Origin: Treponema sp.
GTDB lineage: Bacteria; Spirochaetota; Spirochaetia; Treponematales; Treponemataceae
Assembly (NCBI GenBank): GCA_024687165.1
Contig: JAILEY010000076.1
Coordinates: forward strand, 82 to 64,081
Direction: 5' to 3'
Length of the DNA: 64,000 nt
The notes beneath the pieces are model-generated. The model ran no database searches. It was given only the letters and a program-made list of their open reading frames with translations, and was not told where the DNA came from. Of the stretch, positions 10,358 to 61,236 are shown in pieces; the first letter of the stretch is position 1; every line of letters begins with the position of its first letter. A program made the position numbers and the translations under genes.

Positions 10358-11098
10358 TCAGTTCCGGATAGTTGTTCCAACGTAATTTTTATCTTCAAGA
10401 ATTGCGCGAAGATTTTCAATATTTTTTCCGGCAGCACAAATTACTTTAAGTCCCATTTCCTGAGCTTTTTTTGATGCAATCGGATCGAACGGACAATTTT
10501 TTCCAGGAACCCATTCATCACCAACCATCTTGCGGAAATCAGCCCATGAAATTTCATCTATCGGACGTGCATCAGGATTTTTTCTTGGATCATCTGTATA
10601 AACTTTTTCAATATTTGAAAGATTCACAACTGTGTCAGCATTGAACTTTTCAGCAAGAAGAACTGCATCATTATCTGTTGAAAATCCCGGCTTCCATCCT
10701 GCAGCAACAAGAATACGCCCTGTAAAATCACAAGGTGCAGTAGGGTCTGTAACAACAGCTTCCTTACACAAAGGGCCAAAAACTGTTTTTAAAATCTGTG
10801 CATTAAGACGAGTTGCCATAATTCCAATCCAGTCGCATGCATAATCAGTTTCTGCATTATCTGCAAACGACAGCATTTTTTTCTGAGTTTCATTAAAAGC
10901 TGAAGCAACATTTCTGTATGCATTCTGATATACGCGTGCAGGAGCTCCACCACCGGCTACAAAAACAAGACGTTCATCAGGATTTTTTTCAAGCCAGTCT
11001 GCAATCATTGCACTGAAAGCCGTCAAAAGTTCTACATCAGGTTCACCAGGAGCAATAATCGATCCGCCTACAGATAATACTTTAGTTTTCATTTTCAT
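10358..11098 (-). CDS. pyrH: UMP kinase (archaeal/spirochaete type)
   Basis: KVLSVGGS, GGGAPARVYQ, GWKPGFSTD, VYTDDPRKNPDA, PFDPIAS. Confidence 0.9.
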   Translation of the reverse strand: MKMKTKVLSVGGSIIAPGEPDVELLTAFSAMIADWLEKNPDERLVFVAGGGAPARVYQNAYRNVASAFNETQKKMLSFADNAETDYACDWIGIMATRLNAQILKTVFGPLCKEAVVTDPTAPCDFTGRILVAAGWKPGFSTDNDAVLLAEKFNADTVVNLSNIEKVYTDDPRKNPDARPIDEISWADFRKMVGDEWVPGKNCPFDPIASKKAQEMGLKVICAAGKNIENLRAILEDKNYVGTTIRN

Positions 11099-11164
11099 TC
11101 CTCTTATGTATAAAAAATTAAAATAATTCTAACTTCAAATTTCTCTAAAACTATTAAAATTGTC

Positions 11165-11182
11165 TTCCAGTCGCATTGAGCA
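11165..11182 (+). repeat. Modular intergenic repeat, copy B (degenerate, short)
   Basis: TTCCAGTCGCATTGAGCA vs CTCCCAGTCGCGTTGAGCA in copy E. Confidence 0.6.
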
Positions 11183-11220
11183 CCAATTTTATAAAATTTA
11201 TAAAAATTAAAATTAAATCC

Positions 11221-12942
11221 TTAATAAATTCCAAGCACTACAGGATTATTCCACAAAGAACTGTAACTTGAAGTTGCATCTCCTGCTTCTTCCCAGATTG
11301 ACTGGAATGCATAAGTTCTTGGTCTATACACAGTCTTGCTGTTTACACCCGACTGACGAATCTGCTTCCATCCGCGGCTAAAAGCAATATGCTGATTATC
11401 AAGATTTCCAAAATAAAATTCTTTTACATCACCGATATAACTGAAGTTCTTGAATTCAAGTCCTGCGGCAAGGGCAACATCAACCGGGGACCATCCGTAA
11501 TCTTCAAAATAAATTTCGCACCACCAGTGTGCAGATGAAACATCTTTTTCCTGAACAAGAATTCCACTTACAGGAAGTGCAGGGATTCCAGCCGCACGAC
11601 AAACGGCAGCATACAGAATTGCAAAATCATAAGCATCACCCTTCTTCTTTCTGATCAGATCGATTACAGAAACATCTCCGGATCTAATTTTTGAAGAAAG
11701 CTTATATTCATGAAGGAAGAAATCATAAATCATTCTTGCTTTTTTATACGGATTTTTTTCTGCACCACAAATTTTCTTCATCAGTGTGATAACAGCAGGA
11801 TCCGCTGCAGGCACAAGCTCATCTTTTCTTGTTGCAATTGTATACAAAGCGCTGTTATTTCGTTTGTAAGGACTTACCGCTTCCGCCTTTATATTTGATT
11901 TTACTGCATACGAGCTGACAATATACGTCTGAGAAAATCTCTGTTTTGCAGAAGAATTTTTTGACATGGAAACTTTGTAAATCATATTGTCTGCATCATC
12001 GGGAATAAAAGGATCCGGGAAAATTTCATTAAGCTGTGCATAAGGCTGAAATGAAGTCACAACCGGCTTTGGGACATAAAGCATGATTGTAGAATCTTTT
12101 GAAGCAGAATAATTTGAAATATCTGCAACACTCTGAACAACATAAGTTCTTCTTGCCGAATACTGTTTTTTTCCAACAGGATAACTTACGGTGATTTTTT
12201 TAGATGTACTTGTTCCTTTTGAAGTCTCTACAAAAACTGAACCGCTGTCTGCACCATCCGGCACCTGAATAATAATTTCAGTATCGCTCCAGGAAACATA
12301 ATCCCTGTCCTGAACATTTGCAGCAATATAAATGTCACTCTGATTTTCTTCCTGTCCAGACTGAAGTCCTTTCTCACCGCCACCCGCATAACCGTCTCCA
12401 TTTCTGTTAGCAGTAAAATAAACGGTAGAATTTTCGCGAGTAGAGCCGAAGTTTGAACCAGTGATAATAATATGCTGACCGACAACAACTTTTTCCGGAG
12501 AAACAGAAGCAATTTTTGGGACAGAAATAACAGGATCAAGCTTCACCGCAACCGGGATATTAACTTCATTTGCAAAAAAAGCCGGTTCAGATCTGCCTTC
12601 AGAAGTACCAACAATTACAAGACCGTCCTGAACATTATCCGGAAGAACAAGCCTGATTTCATGATCACGCCAGATTCTGTAATTTGAAGAAGTGATTTTT
12701 GAACCTGAAATTTCAACATAAGAAGTTCCACGTGAAGTACCAAATCCTGAGCCTGAAATTACAAGCTCATCACCAGGTGCACCTATCTGAGGAGAAATCT
12801 CTTTTATCTCAGGAATCTTTTTTACAGTTTTATCGATTATTGAATAAAGCAAAATTCCCAGCACTGCAACGGATAAAAAAGTTCCTATCCGTACTGCCGG
12901 GAATCTGAAAAAGAGTTTTTTATATGTGTCAAAAATTTTCAC
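11221..12942 (-). CDS. Membrane-anchored IPT/TIG + transglutaminase-like protein (catalytic Cys replaced by Ala)
   Basis: GTG start; N-terminal TM; two IPT/TIG repeats (ISPQIGAPGDELVISGSGFG; VSPEKVVVGQHIIITGSNFG); GDAYDFA, AHWWCE, GWSPVD. Confidence 0.85.
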   Translation of the reverse strand: MKIFDTYKKLFFRFPAVRIGTFLSVAVLGILLYSIIDKTVKKIPEIKEISPQIGAPGDELVISGSGFGTSRGTSYVEISGSKITSSNYRIWRDHEIRLVLPDNVQDGLVIVGTSEGRSEPAFFANEVNIPVAVKLDPVISVPKIASVSPEKVVVGQHIIITGSNFGSTRENSTVYFTANRNGDGYAGGGEKGLQSGQEENQSDIYIAANVQDRDYVSWSDTEIIIQVPDGADSGSVFVETSKGTSTSKKITVSYPVGKKQYSARRTYVVQSVADISNYSASKDSTIMLYVPKPVVTSFQPYAQLNEIFPDPFIPDDADNMIYKVSMSKNSSAKQRFSQTYIVSSYAVKSNIKAEAVSPYKRNNSALYTIATRKDELVPAADPAVITLMKKICGAEKNPYKKARMIYDFFLHEYKLSSKIRSGDVSVIDLIRKKKGDAYDFAILYAAVCRAAGIPALPVSGILVQEKDVSSAHWWCEIYFEDYGWSPVDVALAAGLEFKNFSYIGDVKEFYFGNLDNQHIAFSRGWKQIRQSGVNSKTVYRPRTYAFQSIWEEAGDATSSYSSLWNNPVVLGIY

Positions 12943-55330: not shown

Positions 55331-55933
55331 TTACTTTGCTCTTTTTGCTTCAATATACTTGTAGATTAAATCTGCAGTTCCATCTATGCCGAGTTTAGAA
55401 GCATTGATACAAAGCTCGTATGAAGAATAAACACCCCACTTGCCATGCTTTGCAAAATAGTCGTGATAAGCAGCACGCTTCTTGTCGTGAGTTGTAATTT
55501 TTTTCATTGCTTGCTTACGGTCTATTCCTTCATGCTTTTCAATTACGCGCTGAATTTTTGATTCCATATCTGCATAAATAAAAATGTTGATGCAATTCGG
55601 ATAATCATGAAACAAATCATCTGCGCAGCGTCCAACAACGATAAATGAGTCACCATCTGCAGCCTTTGACTTCAAAAGAGCAAACTGAAGTTCAGCAATA
55701 TTTTCTTCAGGAGAATTTGTCATTCCTCTTACTCTTCTGCTGAAAAAACGGCTTCTTGGTTTTTCGTCATATCTGCTCAAATTATTTGTATCAACTTTTT
55801 TAATTCCTGCAATTTCTTCAAGGATATTTCGGCCAAGCACTTCAATTCCAAGCTTTTCTGCAACCTTAGAAGCAATAACATGACCTGCACTTCCATATTC
55901 GCGGCTAATACTGATAATAATCTGTTCGTCCAT
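55331..55933 (-). CDS. Cytidylate kinase-like family protein
   Basis: IISISREYGSAG, IVVGRCAD, D..R..Y, YELCIN.S.LG. Confidence 0.87.
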   Translation of the reverse strand: MDEQIIISISREYGSAGHVIASKVAEKLGIEVLGRNILEEIAGIKKVDTNNLSRYDEKPRSRFFSRRVRGMTNSPEENIAELQFALLKSKAADGDSFIVVGRCADDLFHDYPNCINIFIYADMESKIQRVIEKHEGIDRKQAMKKITTHDKKRAAYHDYFAKHGKWGVYSSYELCINASKLGIDGTADLIYKYIEAKRAK

Positions 55934-55957
55934 AAAATCTACCCCGCCTAACCATCA

Positions 55958-57307
55958 TTACAAATATCTGATAAAGATAAATACTGTACTGATAACCATA
56001 ACGATTATTGTAGCAGGAACAGCTTTTGCACAATAAGTTCCCCAGCTTACAGGGTAACCAGCTTTGGCAGCAACAGATGTTCCTACAACATTTGCACTTG
56101 CACCAATTGGAGTTGCACTTCCACCGATATCAGTACCCATTGAAAGAGCCCATGTCATTGTTCTTAAATCAACACCGCTTGAACCTGCAAGAGACTGAAT
56201 GACAGGAATCATAGTTGCAGCAAACGGAATGTTATCAACAAATGCACTGGCAATTGCACTTACCCAAATGATGATTGCTATCATCAAGTATACGTTACCT
56301 TTTGAAATTTTGCCAATAAATCCTGCAACGATTTCAAGAACACCAGTTTCTTCAAGCCCGCCTACAACAACAAAAAGCCCAATAAAGAAAAGCACTGTCT
56401 TGTAATCAACTTTCTTCATTATTTCACCAACATGACGTGGAGCTGTAAGAAGTGTAATTACAGAAATAAATGCACCGATTGAAGCAACCGAAAGTCCTGT
56501 CTGAGCATGAGTAACAAGAAGAACAACTGCAATTCCAAAAATGATTGAGCTGATTATAAATCCGCCTTTATCCGTGATAGCACTTTCCGGTGTAGGGAAT
56601 GTAGATGTATCAACAGTTTCATCAGCCTTCAAATCTTTTCTGTATGCAAGGAAAAAGAACAAAAGTGTAAACAACAGCGAGATTCCGGCAATTACACCAG
56701 TATTCATAACGAAATCTGTAAATGAATAATGGAATGACGTACCGATTATGATGTTTGGAGGATCACCGCACATTGTTGCGGAACCACCAAGATTTGCACA
56801 GAAAATTTCAGAAAGAATCATCGGAAGAGGATTGAACTTAAGAAGCTGACTCAACTCAACTGTAACAGCTGCAAGGAACAGAATAACTGTAATTGAATCG
56901 ATGAACATTGCGAGAACAGCAGACATAATCATGAAAGTTACAAAGATAGGAAGTACCTTGTATTTAACTGCCTTTGCAAGCTTCATGCACAGCCATCGGA
57001 AGAATCCGACACGAGCCATTCCTTCTACCATAATCATCATGCCGGCAATAAAGATAATTGTTGCCCAGTTGATTCCGGAACTGCTTTCTTCTGCAGCGCC
57101 ATTTGCATACCAGAAGCTGGCTGTAAAAATACTTTTAACATTGAGCGTTTTCATGCATGCTTCTGCGCTATGCATACCCAATCCAAAAACCAATGCAAGA
57201 GTCAAAGCTCCGCAGACCAGAGTTGTCCACTGTCTTTCAAAAAGTTCAAGGATGATTAAAAGAAACATCACTACGAAAATTGAGACAGCTAAAATTTGTG
57301 CTAACAT
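55958..57307 (-). CDS. ArsB/NhaD (SLC13-like) ion transporter
   Basis: INW.TI.FI.GMM, NLGGSATMCGDPPNIIIG, SAFVDNIP, T.IGASANV. TTGAAA-17-TATAAT promoter 7 nt before ATG. Confidence 0.88.
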   Translation of the reverse strand: MLAQILAVSIFVVMFLLIILELFERQWTTLVCGALTLALVFGLGMHSAEACMKTLNVKSIFTASFWYANGAAEESSSGINWATIIFIAGMMIMVEGMARVGFFRWLCMKLAKAVKYKVLPIFVTFMIMSAVLAMFIDSITVILFLAAVTVELSQLLKFNPLPMILSEIFCANLGGSATMCGDPPNIIIGTSFHYSFTDFVMNTGVIAGISLLFTLLFFFLAYRKDLKADETVDTSTFPTPESAITDKGGFIISSIIFGIAVVLLVTHAQTGLSVASIGAFISVITLLTAPRHVGEIMKKVDYKTVLFFIGLFVVVGGLEETGVLEIVAGFIGKISKGNVYLMIAIIIWVSAIASAFVDNIPFAATMIPVIQSLAGSSGVDLRTMTWALSMGTDIGGSATPIGASANVVGTSVAAKAGYPVSWGTYCAKAVPATIIVMVISTVFIFIRYL

Positions 57308-57376
57308 GGAAACGATTATAATTTTTTATAGAAAAGGTTTCAATAAATGAAATACTATACACAAATCAAGATATAC

Positions 57377-57480
57377 TTTATTTTCCTACGCAGAATGCCG
57401 CAGCAAAGCTGCTCACCGAGTTTTCCAGCGAAAACTCGCACAACCCGCATATTTAAAAGTTTTATTTTCCTACACAGAAT
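57377..57480 (-). repeat. 20-bp direct repeat of the mnmE 3' end flanking a 64-bp double-hairpin insert (att-like scar)
   Basis: TTTATTTTCCTACGCAGAAT 57377-57396 vs TTTATTTTCCTACACAGAAT 57461-57480; hairpins GCAGC-AAA-GCTGC and CGAGTTTTC-CAGC-GAAAACTCG in between. Confidence 0.85.
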
Positions 57481-58841
57481 CTTGAAAAAATGTTTCCGAG
57501 GACGTCATCCGGCGTTACGTCGCCTGTTACTTCACCAAGACTGTCCAGTGCATCTTCAAGATCCTGAACAACTGCATCAAGGCCATACTCGCCGCTTTTT
57601 GAAATTTCAATTGCGTGAGAAATTCGCTCAAGTGCTTCTTCAACGGATTTTTTCTGTCTTGCTGACCCAAGCCCGCTTTGCTCACGAATTTTATTTTCTC
57701 CGCTGAAAAGCAATTCCTTAACACTATGAACAAGCTCTTCTATACCAATTCCTTTTTTTGCAGAAATTTTTACTGTCTTTACAGCAGATGAAATTTCTTC
57801 ATTAAATACAGAATTTTCATCACACTTATTAAGGACTGCAATCACAGGAACATTTTTCTGATTTTCAATAAATTTTCTGTCATCATCAGAAAGTTCTTTT
57901 GTAGAATCAACAAGATACAAAATCACGTCTGCTTCATTACTCAAGTCTTTTGTAAGTTCAACACCACGTGCTTCAATCACATCATCAGTTTGTCTTAATC
58001 CTGCTGTATCAAAAAGTCGTACAGGAAGCCCTTCAAAATCAGCATAACTTTCAAGCCAGTCTCTTGTAGTTCCTTCAATATTGCTTACAATTGCACGCTC
58101 TTCTTTTAAAAGAGTATTGAACAAGCTTGATTTTCCTGCATTTGTTTTTCCGCACAAAACGACTCGTGCTCCATCCTGATACAATTTTTCACTTTTCCAT
58201 GATGAAGCGAGTTCTTCAAGTTTTGTCTTTACAACTTCAAGTTCACTGCAGTCAAAATAATCCGCAATATTTTCTTCATCTTCAGGATATTCAATTTCAA
58301 CTTCTATTGAACCAAGAACATCAACAACAGATTTTTTTATTGAATCAATCTGATCAAATAAATTTCCACAGAGTCTGCCCGCTGCTCTTCCACGGCTCAC
58401 ATCAGTTTTACTGTCGATTATTTCTTTTACAGCTTCTGCTTTTGTTAAATCAGTTTTTCCGTTTATGTAAGCCCTGAAAGTATACTCACCACGCTCTGCT
58501 TTTCTGAATCCGTTTGCAAGAAATGCATTTAAAACAGCAGTAACAACAGCAACTCCACCATGACAAAAAACTTCCACCATATCTTCACCGGTAAAAGATT
58601 TTGGAGCACGGTACACGCCGACCATTACTTCATCGATTTTATTTTTTTGCGAATCAAGAATCCAGCCGTAAACAAGAGTATTTCCTGCTGCATCACAAAG
58701 AGCTTTAGGACGAGAAAAAATTTTAGAAGCAAGTTCAATCGAGTTTTTACCGCTTGCACGAACAATACCGATTGCACTTGGAACTAAAGCAGTTGCGATT
58801 GCAACAATTGGTTCTTCCGGTGTGTATTTTAAATTTGTCAT
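57462..58841 (-). CDS. mnmE: tRNA modification GTPase
   Basis: IVAIAT, FTGED.VE..CHGG, GEYT.RA.INGK.DL, GKTNAGKSS, GTTRD, DTAG, IFSRFCVGK end. ATG 58841 chosen. Confidence 0.97.
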   Translation of the reverse strand: MTNLKYTPEEPIVAIATALVPSAIGIVRASGKNSIELASKIFSRPKALCDAAGNTLVYGWILDSQKNKIDEVMVGVYRAPKSFTGEDMVEVFCHGGVAVVTAVLNAFLANGFRKAERGEYTFRAYINGKTDLTKAEAVKEIIDSKTDVSRGRAAGRLCGNLFDQIDSIKKSVVDVLGSIEVEIEYPEDEENIADYFDCSELEVVKTKLEELASSWKSEKLYQDGARVVLCGKTNAGKSSLFNTLLKEERAIVSNIEGTTRDWLESYADFEGLPVRLFDTAGLRQTDDVIEARGVELTKDLSNEADVILYLVDSTKELSDDDRKFIENQKNVPVIAVLNKCDENSVFNEEISSAVKTVKISAKKGIGIEELVHSVKELLFSGENKIREQSGLGSARQKKSVEEALERISHAIEISKSGEYGLDAVVQDLEDALDSLGEVTGDVTPDDVLGNIFSRFCVGK

Positions 58842-58842
58842 T

Positions 58843-61236
58843 TTACTTTCCAAGCCCCGGATTTACATGAAGAAAATATTTTGGAACAGATTTTTCATCT
58901 TTTTCTTCCGGAAATTCTTTTTCCCGCACATAGTTCCACAAAGAAATCATTTCTTCCTGATTCTTTATTTCTTCCTGTAATTCTTCTTCACTCATTTCCT
59001 GACTTTTAATGCCGCTTGAAAATGCAGGAACTCTAGTCTGAAGATCAACTTCATCTTTTCTCCAGGGTGACATTTCATTTTCTTCAGGATCAGGACTGAT
59101 ATCATCATAGAATCCGCCGCTGTTGTTCCAGTACATATATCCGCGGTTTAAACCGTCCCTTACACCAAAAACTTCACGCTTAACATAATTCTTATCATAG
59201 AATTTTCTGTCATAACGGACTCCCATGTAAAATGCCTGAACCCAAGGGCGAACAATAATTTTATTTCGACCCATGATTGTGTTTCTATATGAGCCGTAAA
59301 AATAAATTCTATACGGTCGTTCAGCAAGAGGTGCATACTCAAGGAAGTTCTGTTCAAAATGAGACGGATAGAACATAGGGCAGATTACATCAACATAATC
59401 ACTCATAAGTTCAACATCCTGTCCAGTTCTTGTACCGCTTCTATACCAGCCGTTTGCGCCGTAAATATCAATTCCAATTGGAGCATTAATATTTTTTCTT
59501 GCATAAGAAAGGAATGAAACAAGTGCACTTTCTTTATCCATGCCTTTATCTTTCCAGCGGTAAGTTGCTTCATGCATGTTAATTCCGTCAGTCGGGAATC
59601 TTATGTAATCGAACTGAATTTCATCAAATCCGCGTTCAACAAGTTCCTTTGCAATTTCAATGTTATATTCCCAGACTTCTTCACTATACGGATCAACCCA
59701 GTTTTCATCGTAGTAAAGAACTTTTGTCCCCGTAACATTTCCGTTTTCATCTTTGATTTCTTCAGTACCTTTTTTACCCATCCATGGAGTTCCGGTTTTT
59801 GAGTTCCAGACTGAATACTGCTTCTTGTCATAATTTGCAAGATTTTTATCTTTAAACACAACGATGCGTGCAATCAAATAAACGTCATCCTCCTTAAACT
59901 GTTTTACAAGCTCATCAACATCAATTTTATATTGAGTGACGGTTCCTTTCTTTTTGAGCAGTTCACTTTTTGGAGTAAAACGCAGAAGCCCATAATCATC
60001 CTTCATATCGATTACGATTGCATTGAGTTTATTATCTTTTGTAATTTTTCTGTATTTTGAAATTCCAGTCTGATTCCTAAGCTGATAAACAGAAGAATAC
60101 ACAGCCTTCTTTTTATTTGCAGTTTCTCCGTAAGTTGTTCGGATTCTTTCAGGATCAAGAAGATAGATTTCACTTAATTCAAGCGGCGTCTTTAATCCTG
60201 ATTCATTTTTTGGAATGTAAACAGAATTAACAGTTAAATCAGAACGGCAGACTTTACTGTACCAGCTTTTATTTATATCAACCTCAGAAACTGATCCGTC
60301 ATTTAAAGAATAAGAACTTACTTTTCCAGGAGAGAGGAACACGATATTGCTGTTGCTCTGACAAAGGCTTTCAATCGTGTCGCACTTTTCTTTTCCAGTG
60401 TAAATTTTTTCCGCACGTTTTGTTTTCCAGTTAAATTTAAAAATATTAGGGATATAACTCTGACTTGCAATAATTTCCGGATAGAGATTTCCTTCCTCAT
60501 CCTTGCAGACAACAGGAATTATATCCGCAATTTCATCAACCTGAGTCATACTTGGCATTGCAGAAAATCCTGCGCTTATATCAACCCAGATTGGATTTTT
60601 TGCGTCTGCTCGGTAATAGCTGAAACCGTAAATCGGATGTGACATAAAAACTACAAGCTCATTTCCGCTAACTTTTCCCTTTTTGTCATAGACAGGCATT
60701 GTTGAACAGGCAACGGCTTTTACACCTGAAGTATATTTACTTGCTGACCCAAGCGACTTCCAGGTTTCTCCACCGTCTCTTGTTAAATACACGGCATCTT
60801 TTGTTGCAGTTACGAGAACTTTTGGATTAAATGGATCAACTGCAATATCTTTTAACAGAGCTACCTGCTTAACAAGATTTTTTGTTTTGTTTTCATAAGT
60901 TTTGACAGTCAAAAAAGGAAGACCTTCATTGCATTCTTTAAATATTTCAAGATCAGCTGAAGATAAAATTCCTTTTGATGTAATAAAATACCATTTTTCG
61001 GAAGTGCGCAAAATTCTTTCAACTTTTCCTTCTGTCCATAATGGTTCAAGAGTTGTTTTTGAATTTACTCTGTAAAGGCCTTCATTACAGCCAAGTAAAA
61101 ACGCACCTTTTTTTTCTGTTGATTTTTTGGCCGGTAAATCTTCCGGCAGCTGGTAAAGCGGTTTTATTTCTGCAAAAACCGGTAATTTACTAAAAATTAA
61201 AATTAATAAAATCCATTTTTTAAAGATAGTTCTCAT
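58843..61236 (-). CDS. Exported putative glycoside hydrolase (Asp-box propeller + DUF4015-like TIM barrel)
   Basis: Signal peptide; TRDGGETW Asp-box; NAIVIDMKDDYG, IARIVVFKD, WVDP, GFDEIQFDYIRFP, PM.YPSH, RPW.QAF. Confidence 0.8.
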   Translation of the reverse strand: MRTIFKKWILLILIFSKLPVFAEIKPLYQLPEDLPAKKSTEKKGAFLLGCNEGLYRVNSKTTLEPLWTEGKVERILRTSEKWYFITSKGILSSADLEIFKECNEGLPFLTVKTYENKTKNLVKQVALLKDIAVDPFNPKVLVTATKDAVYLTRDGGETWKSLGSASKYTSGVKAVACSTMPVYDKKGKVSGNELVVFMSHPIYGFSYYRADAKNPIWVDISAGFSAMPSMTQVDEIADIIPVVCKDEEGNLYPEIIASQSYIPNIFKFNWKTKRAEKIYTGKEKCDTIESLCQSNSNIVFLSPGKVSSYSLNDGSVSEVDINKSWYSKVCRSDLTVNSVYIPKNESGLKTPLELSEIYLLDPERIRTTYGETANKKKAVYSSVYQLRNQTGISKYRKITKDNKLNAIVIDMKDDYGLLRFTPKSELLKKKGTVTQYKIDVDELVKQFKEDDVYLIARIVVFKDKNLANYDKKQYSVWNSKTGTPWMGKKGTEEIKDENGNVTGTKVLYYDENWVDPYSEEVWEYNIEIAKELVERGFDEIQFDYIRFPTDGINMHEATYRWKDKGMDKESALVSFLSYARKNINAPIGIDIYGANGWYRSGTRTGQDVELMSDYVDVICPMFYPSHFEQNFLEYAPLAERPYRIYFYGSYRNTIMGRNKIIVRPWVQAFYMGVRYDRKFYDKNYVKREVFGVRDGLNRGYMYWNNSGGFYDDISPDPEENEMSPWRKDEVDLQTRVPAFSSGIKSQEMSEEELQEEIKNQEEMISLWNYVREKEFPEEKDEKSVPKYFLHVNPGLGK

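Follow-up and report, generated by a model that had tools for sequence, protein, structure and literature searches.

Comparison of alleles across strains showed that a gene-less insert of 84 bp directly follows mnmE in a minority of strains of one gut Treponema species. The insert is a true insertion/deletion polymorphism bounded by direct repeats, and empty alleles dominate the species. A second, related module and tandem arrays of the two (modules A and B) were found at the same gene end and are new in this analysis. Tentatively, we favour the view that the modules are a passive, gene-less family of CIME-like remnants at the att core of mnmE, which would be spread by homologous recombination and lost by repeat-mediated deletion. 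The DNA analysed, here called the window, is a stretch of 64,000 nucleotides, and positions given without a locus name refer to it.

In the window, mnmE encodes a tRNA U34 carboxymethylaminomethyl-synthesis GTPase of 459 aa (57462-58841, minus strand; TIGR00450, 379.7 bits; P0001). A 20-mer, TTTATTTTCCTAC[G/A]CAGAAT on the plus strand, occurs in two copies at 57377-57396 and 57461-57480, with a start-to-start distance of 84 bp. The copies of this repeat (TTTATTTTCCTACRCAGAAT, plus strand) are identical at 19 of 20 positions, and the single mismatch is synonymous. Read on the minus strand, the copy at 57461-57480 (DR1) contains TTC TGT GTA GGA AAA TAA, the final six codons of mnmE including the stop (57479-57462), and forms the functional 3′ end of the gene; the repeats span these six codons plus one base on either side. 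The copy at 57377-57396 (DR2, minus strand) is a non-coding mimic of the gene end, reading TTC TGC GTA GGA AAA TAA A and thus differing from the true end by one synonymous change. When the window was shuffled, the mnmE-end repeat was matched with three or fewer mismatches 0.10 times on average, and two matches occurred in one of 100 shuffles.

Between the repeats lies a core of 64 bp (57397-57460, minus strand) without an ORF, which contains two perfect hairpins, one with a 9-bp stem (CGAGTTTTC-CAGC-GAAAACTCG, 57417-57438) and one with a 5-bp stem (GCAGC-AAA-GCTGC, 57400-57412). The 64-bp core and the 20-nt copy of the mnmE end that closes it together make up the 84 bp of module A. An earlier sequence-only reading of this DNA had described both the near-perfect 20-bp repeat of the gene end, 84 bp apart and with one synonymous mismatch, and the gene-free stretch of 64 bp with its two hairpins; re-reading of the sequence bore out both descriptions, coordinates included.

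Exactly these 84 bp were absent from Logan gut-metagenome contigs about 97-99% identical to the window in 15 runs (X1-X7, X10, X12-X17 and X19), with position 57376 joined to 57461, or 57390 to 57475. The gap between mnmE and the permease gene that follows it was 70 nt, not 154 nt, in 11 loci of the same species (L080-L086, L098-L100 and L102), all on contigs encoding an identical or 99%-identical MnmE. In the sister lineage, whose MnmE is 89% identical, all ten of ten loci had the single-copy arrangement, with a gap of 69 nt and no second copy of the gene end. Module A was present in the window, in an independent assembly (L087) and in X11, X20, X25 and X26, its core being 98-100% identical to that of the window. 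Of the 19 DNA runs with contigs crossing the junction, 4 had the module, and the contig of one more run (X8) breaks there. At the mismatched codon, some empty alleles had TGT and others TGC. DR1 follows the host haplotype, with TGT GTA in the window, TGC GTT in L087 and TGT GTT in L101 (a locus with module B, see below), and DR2 is invariant in all haplotypes bearing module A (window, L087 and X25/X26).

The comparison of mnmE downstream regions across strains, which the sequence-only reading had proposed as a check, yielded exact empty sites in the 15 runs and 11 loci above. Of the observations that this reading had named as counting against it, an arrangement shared by all relatives is excluded by the dominance of empty alleles in the species, and an assembly artefact by the identical arrangement in the independent Logan assembly L087 and in the X11 and X20 contigs, where module A shows 100% identity. 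No larger island with the same ends was found at mnmE, and no copies of the 64-mer were found elsewhere: module A has one copy in the 64-kb window and none elsewhere in 102 related loci, and in the metagenomes holding it (X11 and X20) matches lie at the mnmE locus only. In the larger collections, exact-match scans gave no match for the A core in metagenome contigs (two patterns) or viral contigs, none for the module end shared by A and B, and none for the start of module B in viral contigs.

Module B, tandem arrays and divergent flanks

One locus of the same species (L101) carries a different insert past the mnmE stop, in which AAATTTTATGCAAGCAGAGGGGCGGCTTTAGTCAGAAAAATCAGTTATAAGCTTTACTGTGGC leads into a degenerate gene-end copy, TTCTGTGCGGGGAAATAT, and the normal promoter region of the permease begins after it. 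This insert, module B, is 83 bp long and about 60% identical to A, and its mimic of the gene end is more decayed. Alignment of A and B over their whole length gave a score of 87, against 27 ± 7 for shuffles (maximum 58), and the two align well at both ends (AAnTTTTA... and AGCTTTrCTGyGGCwTTCTG). In X25/X26, a lineage about 5% diverged, the contig runs from mnmE through DR1, A and DR2 directly into the start of B, and in an RNA run of the same lineage (X29) B alone follows mnmE. Depending on the strain, the mnmE end carries no module, A, B or A+B. A mimic of the gene end closes every module. Decay is greatest in the distal copy, behind B, and the copies closer to mnmE are intact, which fits successive insertions at an intact gene end. 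The divergence between A and B is about 40%, against 1-5% between host strains.

The cores of A and B resembled neither the 66 nt that precede the repeat in mnmE (101 loci) nor the spacer of the empty site. A local tandem duplication, whether of the terminal 84 nt of the gene or of its end together with the spacer, therefore does not explain them and was rejected. The A core weakly resembles the spacer of the sister lineage (p ~0.02, in one test out of 8), in an alignment that partly competes with the true -35 homology. An 'SSFAAAFCVGK' reading of module A was not above chance, and degenerate copies of the mnmE end downstream of the gene in other Treponema species were not in excess (7 seen, 5.5 expected). 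A dispersed miniature repeat of the MITE or REP-like type has many copies per genome, terminal inverted repeats and a short target duplication; the modules, with a single locus and a 20-nt target repeat, are not of this type. They do share with minisatellites the head-to-tail units in variable copy number (0, 1 or 2 in different strains).

A perfect 18-nt repeat found 1161 bp downstream in Treponema sp. Marseille-Q4130 (L045) was considered as a small island and rejected, being a plain tandem duplication of 1.16 kb (L045 5374-6553). The duplicated unit comprises the last ~100 nt of mnmE and an outer-membrane-like protein (OMP) gene, and the two OMP paralogues are 224 and 221 aa long. The locus resembles the window in having a downstream copy of the mnmE 3′ end, but its two halves are recognisably paralogous and include ~100 nt of mnmE, whereas in the window the match is 20 nt and the 64-bp core is unrelated to local sequence.

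Filled and empty alleles also differ in the coding sequence next to the module. Of the final 81 nt of mnmE, 10 differ between the window and the empty allele L080, whereas the rest of the gene shows 0-2 differences per 100 nt, and the same terminal pattern was seen in the filled alleles L087 (6/81) and L101 (8/81), for which L081 and L100, respectively, are the near-identical empty counterparts. By comparison with empty alleles, the synonymous divergent patch that accompanies the module in the window extends over 57481-57513 (minus strand), and the window has a private patch of 5 changes in 22 nt (57492-57513). Just before DR1, the three filled alleles of the window's own lineage share AAC ATT TTY TCA AGA, codons typical of the clade, and the empty alleles carry the derived codons AAT ATC TTC TCA CGC; X25/X26 are a recombinant exception to this pattern. 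From DR2 onward, L087 is identical to the gene end and downstream DNA of L081 itself. It looks as if a patch consisting of a new gene end and the A core had been inserted ahead of the recipient's original gene end, a footprint of short-armed homologous recombination.

Because divergent patches lie beside the module in every filled allele with readable flanks (window, L087 and L101), the modules appear to have spread by homologous recombination and not by site-specific insertion. As for loss, a precise deletion is expected from recombination or slippage between 19/20 repeats separated by hairpins. In the RNA run X29, A's variant base lies within the first 8 nt of B. This hybrid junction, a single base, is a weak indication that a crossover outside the 20-nt core removed A from an A+B array. 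Active site-specific mobility of the 84-bp element, which the sequence-only reading had entertained, is thus not borne out by the filled alleles, which bring divergent flanks with them, and both gain and loss look homologous or repeat-mediated.

Within this one species, the last 25-80 nt of mnmE (57481-57513 in the window; L080-L102) form a mosaic of highly divergent synonymous patches with two codon sets, a pattern that suggests frequent short-tract recombination.

The mnmE end as an attachment site

The attB of SGI1 is the last 18 bp of thdF/trmE (mnmE), where tandem arrays and mixed bases within the repeats have been reported (PMC2297512). DR1 and DR2 cover the same 18 bases, namely the last five codons and the stop (F-C-V/I-G-K), with the same TTC start, so the equation of the repeat with the SGI1-type attB was correct as to the bases (PMC2297512). 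As in the SGI1/MGI family, the gene is kept intact and tandem arrays occur. SGI1 itself is a 42-kb element of Gammaproteobacteria with Int/Xis next to attL, backbone genes, an oriT and IncA/IncC (IncA/C) helpers, whereas the insert in the window has a gene-less core of 64 bp and a spirochaete host, and no integrase is known for it. Of the attributes of SGI1-type elements, the direct repeats were found; integrase and Xis, the backbone genes, oriT and a gammaproteobacterial host were not. A link to the SGI1-type islands themselves, which are gammaproteobacterial, does not follow from the shared bases.

The CIMEs known to us are kilobase-sized and homologous to a parent ICE or IME. Unlike them, module A is 84 bp long and has no identifiable parent and no recombinase tied to its repeats. 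It agrees with CIMEs, which are documented together with tandem accretion at att sites, in having no genes for recombination or transfer, in being flanked by copies of the target gene end and in standing in tandem with a second element (PMC5704250). The absence of integration and transfer genes is as in a CIME; the homology to a parent ICE, IME or prophage is missing, no parent-element homologue of A or B having been found in 102 Treponema loci or, by exact-match scans, in the viral and metagenome contig collections. The anatomy read from the sequence is attL/attR-like, with an exact, repeat-bounded indel, exact empty sites and an A+B tandem laid out like accretion, and the idea of an integration hotspot also holds up. 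No integrase or larger element with these ends was found, and the flanking patches point to homologous recombination.

Islands at tRNA/tmRNA genes leave displaced 3′ fragments of the gene, and these copies delimit the elements that inserted one after another. The Dehalococcoides ssrA islands are likewise integrated at the 3′ end of a conserved gene present in single copy (PMC3146451). In islands of the ssrA type the repeats bound gene-carrying islands with integrases, whereas the inserts studied here are gene-less and near-constant in size (83-84 bp).

IMG/VR was scanned with a 19-mer of the mnmE end, which led to a 15-kb phage contig (L103). In this contig a mimic of the gene end, TTCTGCGTTGGAAAATAAA, lies between the lysis gene and a tyrosine integrase gene, 181 nt before the integrase start and with no mnmE ORF upstream (region 11078-12422, minus strand), and this core is identical to DR1 of strain L087. 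The integrase family (Arm-DNA-bind_5 + SAM_5 + Phage_integrase) comprises 4046 proteins at E <= 1e-80, and further integrase loci were located in L107-L111, L113 and L114 (2412-5203). In six of six IMG/VR members, that is, the query contig (L103 = L106) and five relatives (L107-L111), the 18-mer stands 181-221 nt upstream of int. In L108, L109, L110, L113 and L114 it is the end of a real mnmE gene; these five loci are therefore attL junctions of prophages integrated at the mnmE 3′ end. In L109 (68-105), only 2 nt separate the host mnmE end TTTTGTGTGGGAAAGTAA from another core of different sequence, TTTTGCATCGGCAAGTGA, beyond which lie the phage arm and int; this is a core duplication with no element between the cores. 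Evidently, at least two integrase families, unrelated to each other, use the mnmE end as their att site.

The host of this phage family is Bacteroidales, one member being so named, and the host MnmE is 33% identical to that of the window. The att arms of the family contain repeated TTGTTGC motifs. A possible homology of A and B to the L103 att arms (p ~0.005 in the first test) was rejected when other parts of the contig, scanned over its full length, scored as well or better. An integrase targeting mnmE, for which the sequence-only reading had asked, did not turn up in Treponema: none was found in the 64-kb window (integrase HMM and tblastn), and none of the phage family within 4-10 kb of mnmE in ~100 Treponema loci (HMM). 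In the loci of other Treponema species, the 4 kb past mnmE hold 119 ORFs, and no integrase family ranks among their 25 commonest Pfam families. No viral contig encoding a Treponema-like MnmE was found.

Origin and turnover of the modules

The remnant reading, which we hold tentatively, would run as follows. An integrative element, either a prophage or an IME, with a tyrosine integrase would have used the last 18 bp of mnmE as attB, and an att-flanked remnant of that element may have decayed into a CIME-like scar. Homologous recombination would then carry the module, along with some tens of flanking bases, from strain to strain, and precise loss would restore the intact mnmE end, probably via recombination or slippage between the direct repeats; the resulting empty alleles are observed. 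A remnant origin is favoured because presence and absence are exact, A and B are homologous at one site, the modules end in mimics of the mnmE end and their cores are not local. Of the two origins offered in the sequence-only reading, the remnant of a deleted island remains the best by analogy, given the att-like repeats, the empty sites and the tandems, although the parent element that it supposes was not found.

Several observations count against a remnant. A and B are two leftovers of near-equal size and collinear homology, which is unlike the outcome of independent random deletions. Their near-equal size and collinearity would fit a single ancestral mini-module that diversified or, more speculatively, related elements in which the same deletion between repeated arm sites recurred. 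Conservation in mnmE is highest over the last 18 nt, and a homology-dependent accident with foreign mnmE DNA would share the same boundary. Finally, no integrase, larger element or parent was found, and the phages at mnmE ends are of Bacteroidales, not Treponema.

Rather less likely than a remnant, but to be taken seriously, is an origin with no site-specific recombination at any time. A rare illegitimate or microhomology event, for example when a staggered break was repaired or when mnmE-flanking DNA of foreign origin recombined, would have put filler or foreign DNA beside a duplicated gene end, and unequal crossing-over between the 20-nt repeats would then have produced a diverging, minisatellite-like array of 0, 1 or 2 units, shuffled by homologous recombination. 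The homologous units and their copy number agree with this, as do the divergent flanking patches, which indicate transfer by homologous recombination, and the X29 junction, where the base of A in the first 8 nt of B looks as if A had been deleted by crossover outside the 20-nt core. The absence of an integrase or parent element is also as expected, the boundary of the repeat coincides with the end of strong mnmE conservation, and L045 shows that an ordinary tandem duplication can copy the mnmE end. However, the cores are unlike both upstream mnmE and the downstream spacer, so that the first unit was no local duplication; a divergence of ~40% between A and B is hard to square with duplication in place when hosts differ by 1-5%; and a copy of the repeat stands at both ends of the array, as insertion at the repeat would give.

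If the remnant reading is true, the mnmE 3′ end would be an integration site well beyond the Gammaproteobacteria that bear SGI1, and such sites could gather tiny gene-less modules that mimic the target and persist as strain-level polymorphisms, providing a cheap marker of past integration and of strain type in gut Treponema. If an illegitimate event followed by unequal crossing-over is the true origin, the insert would be an ordinary small indel and an example of how conserved gene ends attract microhomology-based accidents. Module A encodes nothing, and no phenotype is suggested in either reading; the 84-bp insert is only mildly unusual. The alleles 0, A, B and A+B form a natural test case for separating integrase-mediated from repeat-mediated turnover at an att site.

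That A and B are integrative modules in their own right appears improbable. Such gene-less modules of ~84 bp would carry the target copy as att site, accumulate in tandem and depend on an integrase in trans, most plausibly through accretion with a helper phage or IME and co-excision. To our knowledge, they would be far smaller than any known cis-mobilizable element, all of which are kilobase-sized, and we know of none at mnmE in a spirochaete. Slightly more doubtful again is a tiny non-autonomous element still active today, with the 20-nt end as an attP-like site for an integrase from elsewhere in the genome or from an incoming phage or ICE; here the module itself would move or, more plausibly, undergo accretion with a helper and co-excision (CIME-type cis-mobilisation). 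Such activity would account for the presence of the module in several backgrounds and in a ~5%-diverged lineage with at most one change in 64 bp, for a constant DR2 beside a DR1 that tracks the host, and for an A+B tandem laid out like accretion (PMC5704250). On the other side, no helper integrase is known, a double-stranded circle of 84 bp is sterically implausible, and the module is rare (4/19 DNA runs) and confined to the mnmE locus. Site-specific insertion would moreover spare the flanks of the recipient, and the readable filled alleles bring a divergent patch. Mobilisation in trans, the second origin proposed from the sequence, therefore loses ground to homologous recombination, with no helper integrase in sight and flanks that point to the latter.

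Read in mnmE sense, the RNA of module A has a folding energy of -32.3 kcal/mol (z = -2.9), whereas module B does not exceed its shuffles in structure (z = +0.6). The double hairpin, described at first as a feature of the element, does not hold for an unstructured B, and the hairpins are incidental to module A. A terminator scan of 57377-57480 made no call, and neither hairpin has a U tract after it, the bases after the two being GUGAGC... and GGCAUU...; for the 9-bp stem, a T/U tract is lacking on both strands. An intrinsic terminator of mnmE was rejected, since there is no U tract and no scan call and the hairpins are not kept in B; the possibility, raised earlier, that the 64-mer is merely the mnmE terminator fails at least for a canonical one. 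The best match in Rfam 15 (E = 1.7) scored 16.9 bits, where the gathering score is 105. No hairpin lies between mnmE and the permease promoter in the empty allele. An RNA-level role, with mobility secondary, in which the module serves as a structured 3′ UTR or as a partial terminator or insulator uncoupling mnmE from the permease-kinase-uppP operon, is unlikely: the folding of A and the lack of a hairpin in the empty allele speak for it, and an RNA-run contig across the empty-allele junction would fit read-through, but RNA contigs may hold DNA carry-over, the hairpins have neither U tract nor terminator call, B is unstructured, the best Rfam match is far below the gathering score and most strains have no module.

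The neighbourhood of mnmE

On the minus strand, the gene order is DUF4015 protein (797 aa), mnmE, the 84 bp, an ArsB/CitMHS-type permease, a Cytidylate_kin2 protein and uppP. The mechanically called ORF of mnmE (57462-58853) begins at TTG 58853 and overlaps the upstream gene. The identical protein of 459 aa (P0001) was called on 9 public contigs and starts four codons later, at ATG 58841, one base past the stop of the 797-aa DUF4015 gene (region 58839-58853); position 58841 is probably the real start. The permease gene (55958-57307, minus strand) is the first gene past the module and lies outside it, as does the sigma-70-like promoter of the permease operon (57315-57343, minus strand), which consists of TTGAAA, a 17-nt spacer and TATAAT, matches 11 of 12 consensus positions and is unchanged across all alleles aligned. 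An RNA-seq run (X28) gave a contig spanning the permease 5′ region into mnmE with the empty allele (57168-57395 of the window), which would imply that mnmE and the permease operon are co-transcribed by read-through, barring DNA carry-over.

The nearest genomes are gut and rumen Treponema MAGs, with a MnmE identity of at most 79%. In eight of the closest species uppP is the next gene after mnmE, directly in seven and after ~360 nt of non-coding DNA in L005, and the permease and kinase were absent from the 4 kb downstream of mnmE in 79 of 79 loci. The permease and Cytidylate_kin2 genes between mnmE and uppP (55331-57307, minus strand) were found only in the window's species and the sister lineage, and 3 nt separate the kinase stop from the uppP start. 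Since uppP follows mnmE in the eight related species, this 2.1-kb permease-kinase block is an older insertion at the same mnmE end, without a repeat on its distal side.

Two further observations concern the DNA just past mnmE. In runs X8 and X26, a short contig matches 38 nt of the window (57350-57387, part of DR2 and the spacer) with 5 mismatches and has unrelated sequence on both sides; it may come from another species or be a chance match. In other Treponema species (L034 5381-5420, L061 5430-5530 and L069 5400-5470), short palindromic intergenic elements lie directly after mnmE, examples being GTCATTCCGGACTTGATCCGGAATCC and GTCATTGCGAGC...CTCGCAATGAC, which are unrelated to modules A and B.
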